Positions 30,747-32,132 of a stretch of DNA of 48,452 bases are shown piece by piece. Within the stretch, counting starts at the first letter, position 1; every line of letters begins with the position of its first letter. Made by a program: the position numbers and the translations under genes. This DNA is from a virus (lineage: Duplodnaviria; Heunggongvirae; Uroviricota; Caudoviricetes): the IMG/VR virus record IMGVR_UViG_2718218453_000005. The stretch is one strand, 5' to 3'. The notes beneath the pieces were generated by a model. That model searched no databases, was not told the origin of the DNA, and saw only the letters and a list, made by a program, of their open reading frames with translations.

Positions 30747-31033
30747 AAATATCCCTCCTTTCTCCAGATTTCTTGTGTGCGAAAAACACCTTCTGCATGC
30801 ATCAGGCGTAATTCTTCTTTGGTGTAATCGCTGGTTTTTACCCGCCCGTCGATTAGATCGTGGCATGAGCTACAGGCAATCGCCGCCTGCATATCGTGTG
30901 GTTTTGTCGCTGTTCCGCACGTTCCCGCCAGTCGGTAATGCGCCAGCACAGACGTTTCCGGATCATGATTGCAGTAGCCAGGAATTCTGACGGTGCACAT
31001 CTGCCCCCGCGCCGCTTTACGTAAATCCACCAT
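30743..31033 (-). CDS. YbcO-like protein (DUF1364, putative nuclease)
   Basis: 96 aa; LRKAARGQMCTVRIPGYCNHDPETSVLAHYRLAG...IACSSCHD resembles DLP12 YbcO as recalled; Cys/His cluster. Confidence 0.7.
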   Translation of the reverse strand: MVDLRKAARGQMCTVRIPGYCNHDPETSVLAHYRLAGTCGTATKPHDMQAAIACSSCHDLIDGRVKTSDYTKEELRLMHAEGVFRTQEIWRKEGYL

Positions 31034-31632
31034 TACGCAAACTCCAGCAGCTGCGCGGTCACATTTTCGACTTGTTCCGGAGAGGAAAATTTACGGAACA
31101 GAATCCAGTTCCACAGCACATTCAGAACAGATTTATAAACCTGCTGAAACTCGGTTTCGTCCATATTCGCAAAAGCGATGGATTTCGCCCGACGCCCATG
31201 GCTACCATCAGGATAAAGATGCTCGGTGTAAAATCCGGCCTGAATGGTTACCCACTCGCGGAAAGCCTCAAACGACTTTAGCAATGCCGTATCCCGGGTT
31301 CTGCGTGTCGCAACTGTATTCAGATATTGCTCTGCGGCTTCGCTCAGAGCTGGCGTATGTTCCCGGCCTACTGATTCACATAGGTAATCAACGAATCCTG
31401 AAACCAGCTTTCGTTCGCGAGGCGTGATCGCCCCACCGACCGGAGTCCAGTAATCGAATCCCAGTTGCAGGAGTTTGAAAAAACGCTTGTGGAATGCGTA
31501 GTTACGCACACGCTTAAAGTCTGCGTGTATCCACTCGCCTATTTTGATTTGATGCAAAAAATCGCAACTCTCCGGCGTCGCCGGGAGAAGTAGTCCAGAA
31601 GAGGTTTGTTTGACCAGTTGTATATGCGCCAT
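31033..31632 (-). CDS. nin-region phage protein of unknown function (DUF1367-like)
   Basis: 199 aa, ATG start, stop overlaps ybcO-like start (TAATG). Confidence 0.65.
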   Translation of the reverse strand: MAHIQLVKQTSSGLLLPATPESCDFLHQIKIGEWIHADFKRVRNYAFHKRFFKLLQLGFDYWTPVGGAITPRERKLVSGFVDYLCESVGREHTPALSEAAEQYLNTVATRRTRDTALLKSFEAFREWVTIQAGFYTEHLYPDGSHGRRAKSIAFANMDETEFQQVYKSVLNVLWNWILFRKFSSPEQVENVTAQLLEFA

Positions 31633-31910
31633 TTCTCAATCTCTCGATGGCGCAGTGCAGCAGATGCCAGTTGTTCAGGCTGGCGAATAAAGTATAAATA
31701 AACTGGCTATGGTGTAAAGCTCCACATAACATGAACAAACACTACATATCAAATAGCTGATACAAGGATAGAAATACAACACTTATTATTAAAAACGATT
31801 AGATAAATTACATTTTAATGTTATGAAAAAGTTCTTTTTTATCATAACATTTCAACAAAAGCATTACAGATGCACATCCCGTCATCATCAATTATTTAAG
31901 GTGGTTAAAC

Positions 31911-31997
31911 ATGGAAAATAACAACTATGCACATCTCGCTCCTTTTTTATCCGTAATCCTTTTCGCTGGCTGTTTTATATGGGCATTATTTTTATAA
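31911..31997 (+). CDS. putative small hydrophobic peptide (28 aa)
   Basis: AAGGTGG SD 6 nt before ATG; MENNNYAHLAPFLSVILFAGCFIWALFL; in AT-rich intergenic region; below ORF-track cutoff. Confidence 0.4.
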   Translation: MENNNYAHLAPFLSVILFAGCFIWALFL

Positions 31998-32070
31998 AGT
32001 AGCCGCATGATTAGTTTCTGGAATCATGTTTCCCACTCAAATCATTAACATTTGATAAGATATATCTAAA

Positions 32071-32132
32071 AGGATGCCTTTACATTATTTGATGCGTATA
32101 TGATTTATTTATATGCACAGTAAAGGCATCCT
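32071..32132. repeat. 13-bp perfect inverted repeat (AGGATGCCTTTAC / GTAAAGGCATCCT) separated by 36 bp
   Basis: read directly from sequence; in AT-rich non-coding region. Confidence 0.6.

Follow-up and report, generated by a model that had tools for sequence, protein, structure and literature searches.

A conserved 28-codon ORF predicted to encode a membrane peptide in a mobile prophage cassette of Escherichia: a candidate type I toxin-antitoxin-like module

Is a 28-codon ORF in the AT-rich DNA between two prophage genes a real gene and, if its product is made, could that product be a membrane toxin? The locus that raises this question lies in a 48,452-nt stretch of viral DNA (IMG/VR record IMGVR_UViG_2718218453_000005), the whole of which is referred to here as the window. 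It is a lambdoid E. coli prophage; the region is identical to that of strain NDM1, and trkG adjoins it, as is the case for Rac. With its 87 nt, the ORF falls below the reporting minimum of most gene callers, and neither it nor the surrounding cassette described below carries an annotation in any of the ~140 RefSeq record rows inspected. An exact look-up of four peptide variants among 15 billion proteins found none of them. An earlier note on this DNA had described a strongly initiated ORF whose product is essentially one transmembrane helix, and had recognized in it the pattern of small membrane toxins and regulatory peptides. Here, we examine the coding status of the ORF, the extent of the unit to which it belongs, and the regulatory signals around it, and we weigh the readings that these allow.

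The ORF, its start signals and its neighbourhood

The start signals and the peptide are as the earlier note had them (Table 1). In the window copy, the predicted duplex between the Shine-Dalgarno (SD) sequence and the anti-SD at the 16S 3' end has an energy of -10.2 kcal/mol, a strength that just 17 ORFs reach (top 2%) among the 854 in the window that begin with ATG and have 20 codons or more. The SD of other clades is weaker, being AAGGTGA (-8.5 kcal/mol), AAGGTAG (-5.9 kcal/mol) or AAAGTGA (-4.4 kcal/mol), and the window copy combines an intact ORF with the strongest SD of the family. Mean Kyte-Doolittle hydropathy is -1.2 over the polar head (residues 1-9) and +2.3 over the hydrophobic tail (residues 10-28), and the tail averages +2.3 to +2.6 across all clades. 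With its 28 aa and one predicted membrane helix, the peptide belongs to the class of small (<60 aa) hydrophobic membrane proteins. The AT-rich intergenic setting was also described correctly: the ORF lies within an 855-nt gap (GC about 0.30) on the border of the prophage's variable cargo/defence slot, and GC content is 0.30-0.32 over 31650-32400 compared with about 0.5 in the flanking genes.

Table 1. Coordinates of the features of the locus in the window
Feature	Position	Strand	Description
28-codon ORF with stop	31911..31997	+	ATG at 31911; encodes MENNNYAHLAPFLSVILFAGCFIWALFL, with a polar N-terminal 9 aa and a C-terminal 19-aa transmembrane segment
SD sequence AAGGTGG	31898..31904	+	Followed by the 6-nt spacer ttaaac (31905-31910) and the ATG
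Near-invariant leader block	31782..31830	+	Holds a -10-like TATTAT (31784-31789; putative sense promoter) and the 5' arm of the leader hairpin, AATGTTATG
Leader hairpin	31817..31851	+	AATGTTATG (31817-31825) pairs with CATAACATT (31843-31851); present in the MFE fold
Anti-SD strand TTATCATAACAT	31839..31850	+	Can pair with 31894-31904 (AT-TTAAGGTGG)
Antisense promoter-like site	31891..31918	-	-35 TTTTCC (31918-31913), 16-nt spacer, -10 AATAAT (31896-31891); sub-threshold in the window
Antisense terminator-like element	31768..31797	-	Stem CGTTT...AAGTG (31797-31780), then TTGTATTTCT; weak in the window
Whole conserved cassette, ~220 bp	31780..31998	+	Promoter -10, leader, SD and 28-codon ORF; common to all clades and contexts
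NinB-like DUF1367 gene	31033-31632	-	One flank of the AT-rich gap
DUF1971 gene	32487-32840	+	Other flank of the AT-rich gap
hok/sok locus	32923-33216	-	Rfam sok 7e-23 (101 bits); Pfam HOK_GEF; ~1 kb from the ORF
YobI/Tmn-type P-loop NTPase defence gene	33696-37328	-	1210 aa; PADLOC Tmn 1e-66

Phage genes of the window run on the - strand. Replication genes lie beyond the YobI/Tmn-type NTPase gene, and the slot between 32000 and 37700 is a variable cargo/defence hotspot, filled here by DUF1971, hok/sok and the YobI-like NTPase and in other strains by IteA/IteS, an AAA ATPase with DUF262, QueH, or IS3. The Hok ORF of the window is just 41 aa long, ends in ...RIRTGRRRL and appears truncated or altered at its C-terminus. 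In H55 (NZ_CP067342.1, 2594075-2595645) an IS1 is inserted inside the 851-nt intergenic region.

Further signals are found on both sides of the ORF. A promoter-like TTTACA-16-TATACT (10 of 12 consensus positions) lies on the - strand at 31691-31718, 60-85 nt upstream of the DUF1367 start, and the scanned loci of W and L164 type have it unchanged. Its -10, together with an adjacent GCCAG...CTGGC hairpin (31674-31692), is also kept in Salmonella and Citrobacter, and the site suggests that the nin-like/Q-like operon has a promoter of its own. Upstream of DUF1971, a perfect TTGACA and a perfect TATAAT (32445-32477, + strand) are conserved in relatives; their 21-nt separation is wider than a standard sigma-70 promoter allows. 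The 13-bp perfect inverted repeat that the earlier note had placed about 80 nt downstream of the ORF does exist (32071-32083 / 32120-32132, with a 36-nt loop), starting 74 nt past the stop codon. A functional link to the ORF did not stand, however: the repeat belongs to the DUF1971-type cargo beyond the cassette and shows one mismatch and one wobble in close relatives, and we do not count it as part of the ORF unit.

Selection on the ORF and extent of the cassette

Relatives were gathered from IMG/VR through two independent anchors, the SD/start region and a non-coding block ~100 nt upstream, each anchored set being unbiased for the part that is fixed by the other anchor. The sets consist of related Escherichia prophages among the matches listed, and their loci and alignment cells are not independent events. 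Four clades are distinguished, called here the window, W, L164 and L197 clades. When anchored on the upstream block, all 135 complete loci among the matches listed keep the ATG and exactly 28 codons plus stop, and they encode 14 peptide variants. A minimum-spanning tree of 18 distinct ORF sequences, taken as a rough genealogy, holds 24 synonymous and 25 non-synonymous changes on 17.5 synonymous and 69.5 non-synonymous sites (dN/dS about 0.26, binomial p = 5.7e-6). This dN/dS is the lowest of the six frames, the other five of which all contain stops, and pairwise pN/pS values from one clade to another range over 0.10-0.61. The most distant clades retain 79-83% identity in the ORF with zero gap columns, compared with 47-58% identity and 3-6 gap columns for the leader spacer. 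Within residues 10-28 every replacement is hydrophobic or small, and M1, E2, N3, N4, H8, P11, L13, S14, I16, L17, F18, C21, W24, A25, F27 and L28 do not change at all.

The earlier note had looked to conservation of the ORF itself in related prophages, and would have doubted it had synonymous sites been conserved no better than flanking non-coding DNA. Instead, the 28 codons are intact throughout the related prophages among the matches listed, synonymous changes are ~4-fold enriched in the ORF frame, and indels occur in the leader spacer and none in the ORF. The codons are thus under purifying selection, and it follows that the peptide is probably made and matters. From these comparisons we regard the ORF, with high confidence, as a genuine coding gene.

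It would be quite unlikely, in light of the same data, that no peptide is made and that only an RNA or DNA element is conserved, with a fortuitous ORF inside it. Such an element might encode an sRNA on the - strand, serve as leader to the DUF1367-DUF1364-Q-like operon, or resemble tR2 within the early-right transcript. The idea draws on the location of the most conserved stretch in non-coding DNA (31782-31830), on the strong conserved promoter-like site nearby on the - strand (31718-31691), and on the weak SD of the L164 clade (-4.4 kcal/mol). It does not account for a synonymous enrichment that is specific to the ORF frame, for zero stops or indels in 135 loci of four clades among the matches listed, for a homology that terminates exactly at the stop codon, or for the existence of cassette copies without DUF1367.

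The conserved unit is larger than the ORF and has sharp edges. With 31780-31998 as BLAST query, 1170 of 5426 complete E. coli genomes (22%) proved to carry the cassette, at 1243 places; about 460 copies have at least 95% identity and about 710 have 72-75%. Divergent copies align to query positions 3-219, which correspond to 31782-31998 of the window. At the right edge, homology stops at the ORF stop codon before at least three unrelated types of cargo: the 3' end of a convergent hok, a bidirectional iteS terminator, or, in the window, the DUF1971 module. The cassette generally borders the variable slot that separates the replication genes from the DUF1367 gene, and it lies on the strand opposite to the phage operons. 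In contigs L197 and L206, by contrast, it lies near tail-fibre genes, with DUF1367 absent and unrelated flanks on both sides, and the stretch that these contigs have in common with the window is 31780-32000 only. The recurrence of the 31782-31998 edges and the tail-fibre context make the cassette an autonomous, sharp-edged unit found in different phage contexts, as phage morons are.

Carriers were found among lambdoid prophages of Escherichia and Shigella, and the cassette appears to be missing from K-12. Among 39 DUF1367 loci from genome contigs, the ORF was present only in Shigella and E. ruysiae; it was absent from DUF1367 loci of Salmonella (87% protein identity), Citrobacter, Pantoea and other genera. 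A search of viral contigs with a degenerate codon pattern, excluding the known nucleotide versions, matched nothing, and L197-type patterns matched L197 and L206 only, so that among the matches listed there were no members outside the four clades.

The contexts also bear on whether the ORF could be a leader peptide, or upstream ORF, controlling the DUF1971 gene on the same strand. A + strand gene does follow 490 nt downstream in the window clade. Most carriers, however, have a convergent gene (hok, iteS) or a terminator after the stop codon and are devoid of DUF1971; a hairpin stands 10-25 nt after the stop in every context type, and it is the peptide sequence itself that is under selection. 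We consider this possibility highly improbable. As for the hairpins, those of the IteAS- and hok-type contexts (L003 4358-4410; L002 4375-4390) are GC-rich, begin 20-25 nt past the stop of the small ORF and have A-runs before them or T-runs after them; each has the appearance of a terminator that acts in both directions and also serves the convergent cargo gene.

Leader folds and promoter-like signals on both strands

Upstream of the ORF, the leader block is near-invariant in the 57 haplotypes obtained with the SD/start anchor (among the matches listed), with 89-98% identity between clades. The W and L164 clades carry TTGCTG/TTGTTG-16-TATTAT there, a plausible sigma-70 promoter. An 8-nt insertion leaves the window clade with a poor sense -35, and a PWM promoter scan of this clade returned no convincing sense promoter. 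Were transcription to start near 31796, the leader would be about 115 nt long.

Leader folds were evaluated on an alignment (A4) of 55 distinct sequences, which represent four clades and a handful of independent substitutions per helix. In the leader hairpin 90% of the alignment cells are paired, and variation is solely between G-C and G-U, tolerated only on the + strand. The anti-SD helix (A4 columns 62-73 with 123-134) has 96.3% of its cells paired, compared with at most 47% in slid controls, and includes compensatory changes at column pairs 63/133 (CG, UG, UA) and 71/125 (UA, CG). Four more of its pairs vary by wobbles that exist on the + strand only and would be A-C mismatches on the - strand. 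This strand preference in the leader helices is a further point against a conserved element that makes no peptide.

The leader hairpin and the anti-SD helix have one strand in common and are therefore mutually exclusive. The MFE fold of the W-type RNA contains the SD-occluding anti-SD helix, whereas in the RNAalifold consensus the 5' hairpin is retained and codons 8-9, rather than the upstream anti-SD, are the partner of the SD. What is robust in these models is the predicted burial of the SD in the leader fold, whichever the partner. Computationally, then, both the anti-SD helix and the RNAalifold pairing give the occluded ribosome binding site that is found in the leaders of toxin mRNAs. Whole-RNA fold energies are 1.6-1.8 sd below shuffles; for the putative mRNA and antisense RNA the whole-RNA MFE has z between -0.3 and -1.9 and is not decisive.

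Two peculiarities of the leader were noted in single clades. The window-clade leader holds a near-copy of ORF codons 6-9, forming a direct repeat on the + strand (31870-31881 / 31927-31938; ATGCACATCCCG / ATGCACATCTCG) that is missing in other clades. In the W-clade leader (L002 4177-4260; A4 columns 46-134), an invariant ATG opens a 27-codon frame, MQICQITIISHLKTAEITTLSGLIILR, that stops at a TGA within the SD AGGTGA, a geometry that recalls the coupling of mok and hok. We rejected the frame as a mok analogue, as it has 11, 22, 27 or 32 codons depending on the clade and is devoid of an SD.

Signals on the opposite strand are clearest in the relatives. A blind consensus scan of three of them (from the W, L164 and L197 clades) called an antisense promoter at the same position, with TTTCCA-16 followed by TATGAT, CATAAT or AATAAT; the -35 is complementary to the first two codons of the ORF, and the -10 lies just upstream of the SD. 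This promoter satisfies the criteria of the scan in 113 of 117 W and L164 loci among the matches listed. All 17 window-clade loci among the matches listed pass relaxed criteria only, a 1-nt deletion having shifted the -35 register to give TTTTCC-16-AATAAT. For the W and L164 clades, the same scan also reported an antisense terminator-like hairpin at the left cassette edge (CGCTTTTAATAATAAGCG followed by the T-run TTGTTTTTAT or TTGTGTTTAT), whose loop is the complement of the sense -10. In the window clade, two C-to-U transitions in the terminator stem keep G-U pairs on the - strand only, and the stem of the window copy is made of one G-C, two G-U and two A-U pairs. Scanning the window itself called neither the antisense promoter nor the terminator, and the number of promoter-like sites in the window is not above that of shuffles; all these calls are pattern matches to a consensus, of a kind that AT-rich DNA commonly yields.

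Taken together, the antisense promoter and terminator would yield an RNA of ~110 nt with full complementarity to the leader. The predicted RNA overlaps the anti-SD and not the SD. Simple occlusion of the ribosome binding site by the antisense RNA is therefore not predicted, and repression would instead proceed via RNase III or decay of the duplex, or by another route.

A candidate type I toxin-antitoxin-like family and its relation to known systems

We group the cassette, as a candidate, with type I toxin-antitoxin modules because it joins a selected one-helix peptide, a leader predicted to hide the ribosome binding site, a putative inward-facing antisense promoter with its terminator, and a mobile location in prophages. 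As a complete mechanism, a new family working in this way has a probability of about 0.5 in our estimate. In such a module, a sigma-70 promoter with its -10 TATTAT at the left edge of the cassette would make the mRNA, and the opposing promoter over the start codon would make an antisense RNA of ~110 nt that covers the leader and ends at the small terminator that has the sense -10 as its loop. The mRNA would stay translationally silent through its own fold and through the antisense RNA. Upon failure of this control, the peptide would insert into the inner membrane and damage or depolarise it. Plausible roles would be retention of the prophage or of the cargo slot, or abortive infection. The window copy is a less typical representative, since the commoner clades surpass it in the sense -35, in the antisense spacing and in the antisense terminator. 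The pattern of small membrane toxins and regulatory peptides seen by the earlier note thus finds support in the selected one-helix peptide, the SD-occluding leader and the antisense signals of relatives, but not in the promoter and antisense signals of the window, which are weak.

In the main rival reading, which we hold to be possible though doubtful, the ORF encodes a small membrane protein that is controlled by the leader and is not toxic. The product would be a real, translated, lysogen-expressed "moron" peptide that modulates a membrane protein of host or phage, for example in superinfection exclusion, in the modulation of a transporter or sensor, or in helping adjacent defence cargo, with the leader switch adjusting its translation; the antisense matches would be by-products, arising from the AT-rich sequence and from the constraints that coding and structure impose. 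Coding selection, autonomy of the cassette and leader structure fit this reading equally. Among bacterial peptides with one helix and 20-50 aa, many act as regulators and not as toxins. A harmless peptide would also make it easier to understand that the window clade has the ORF and a very strong SD together with weak antisense signals. Furthermore, the antisense -35 falls within the invariant codons ATG-GAA-AA and the -10 within the 3' strand of the anti-SD helix, both of which are constrained for other reasons. On the other hand, an independent scan called a mutually fitting promoter and terminator ~110 nt apart on the correct strand in two clades, and the antisense promoter alone in L197. 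The terminator changes of the window clade are compatible with wobble pairing on the - strand only, and the cassette has no fixed partner gene, its cargo being variable.

A more specific version of the toxin reading would make the cassette an anchor of the cargo/defence slot, in which a minimal toxin/antisense pair sits exactly at the recombination boundary and couples retention of the cargo to survival of the cell, or triggers abortive infection. The peptide would be unleashed by loss of the adjacent DNA, or by antisense read-through from the early-right operon during infection or induction, and the cargo whose retention would be coupled includes Tmn, IteAS, Hok and others. We consider this elaboration unlikely.

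E. coli is the best-annotated bacterium, and yet a cassette present in 22% of its complete genomes is unannotated in the ~140 rows inspected. If the peptide is an antisense-controlled membrane toxin, as in the type I-like reading that we prefer, it would define a new type I family specific to the border of a prophage defence hotspot, with a bearing on prophage stability, persistence and phage defence. Even if harmless, it would be a clean example of a selected 28-residue membrane protein with a predicted leader RNA switch.

Profile searches with the peptide (Pfam-A, NCBIfam, PADLOC and PHROGs) found no family at E <= 1 except the Lp6.6 lipoprotein model (E = 0.21) and the PHROG spanin 6073 (E = 0.009, with one variant only), both of which we judged to be noise from the hydrophobic segment. 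An Rz/Rz1-type spanin was rejected, given that the lysis genes lie 3 kb away on the other strand, the W-type peptide is unmatched and there is no lipobox. Rfam models over the cassette gave no family and no sok match, and a literature search with the peptide, DNA and RNA sequence motifs of the cassette gave no match. A preprint on Pas-sRNA was set aside as an earlier account, as it deals with other prophage positions.

In architecture, the closest known system is hok/sok. Both have a small membrane peptide and a long structured leader in which the ribosome binding site is occluded, both are carried by prophages at this slot, and in both an antisense RNA promoter (here predicted) lies within the leader and fires back towards the toxin promoter. 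They differ in that the peptide of the cassette has 28 aa instead of about 50, is devoid of a periplasmic Cys-containing tail and has no sequence similarity to Hok; against Hok/Gef (PF01848) it gives no Pfam match at E <= 1, compared with 3e-16 for the nearby Hok. The cassette also has no conserved mok-like overlapping frame.

In size, the peptide is closer to the short hydrophobic type I toxins of E. coli (ibs/sib, shoB/ohsC, zorO/orzO, dinQ/agrB and tisB/istR), which are 18-30 aa long with one helix and have a 5' UTR of at least 100 nt that controls translation. Those toxins occupy fixed chromosomal intergenic sites, whereas the cassette is mobile in prophages. Its predicted overlap is about 95 nt and fully cis-encoded, and the toxicity of its peptide is putative; unlike many type I toxins, the peptide is devoid of a charged C-terminal tail. 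In published accounts of short E. coli type I toxins (PMC2887945, PMC3919570), the sRNA is encoded opposite the 5' end of the toxin mRNA.

Finally, the cassette resembles phage morons in its sharp boundaries, its AT-rich composition, a predicted transcription that does not depend on the phage operons and runs against them, and its varied positions, at the border of the nin region or at the tail-fibre/integrase end. It differs from them in being far smaller and in apparently carrying its own antisense regulator.
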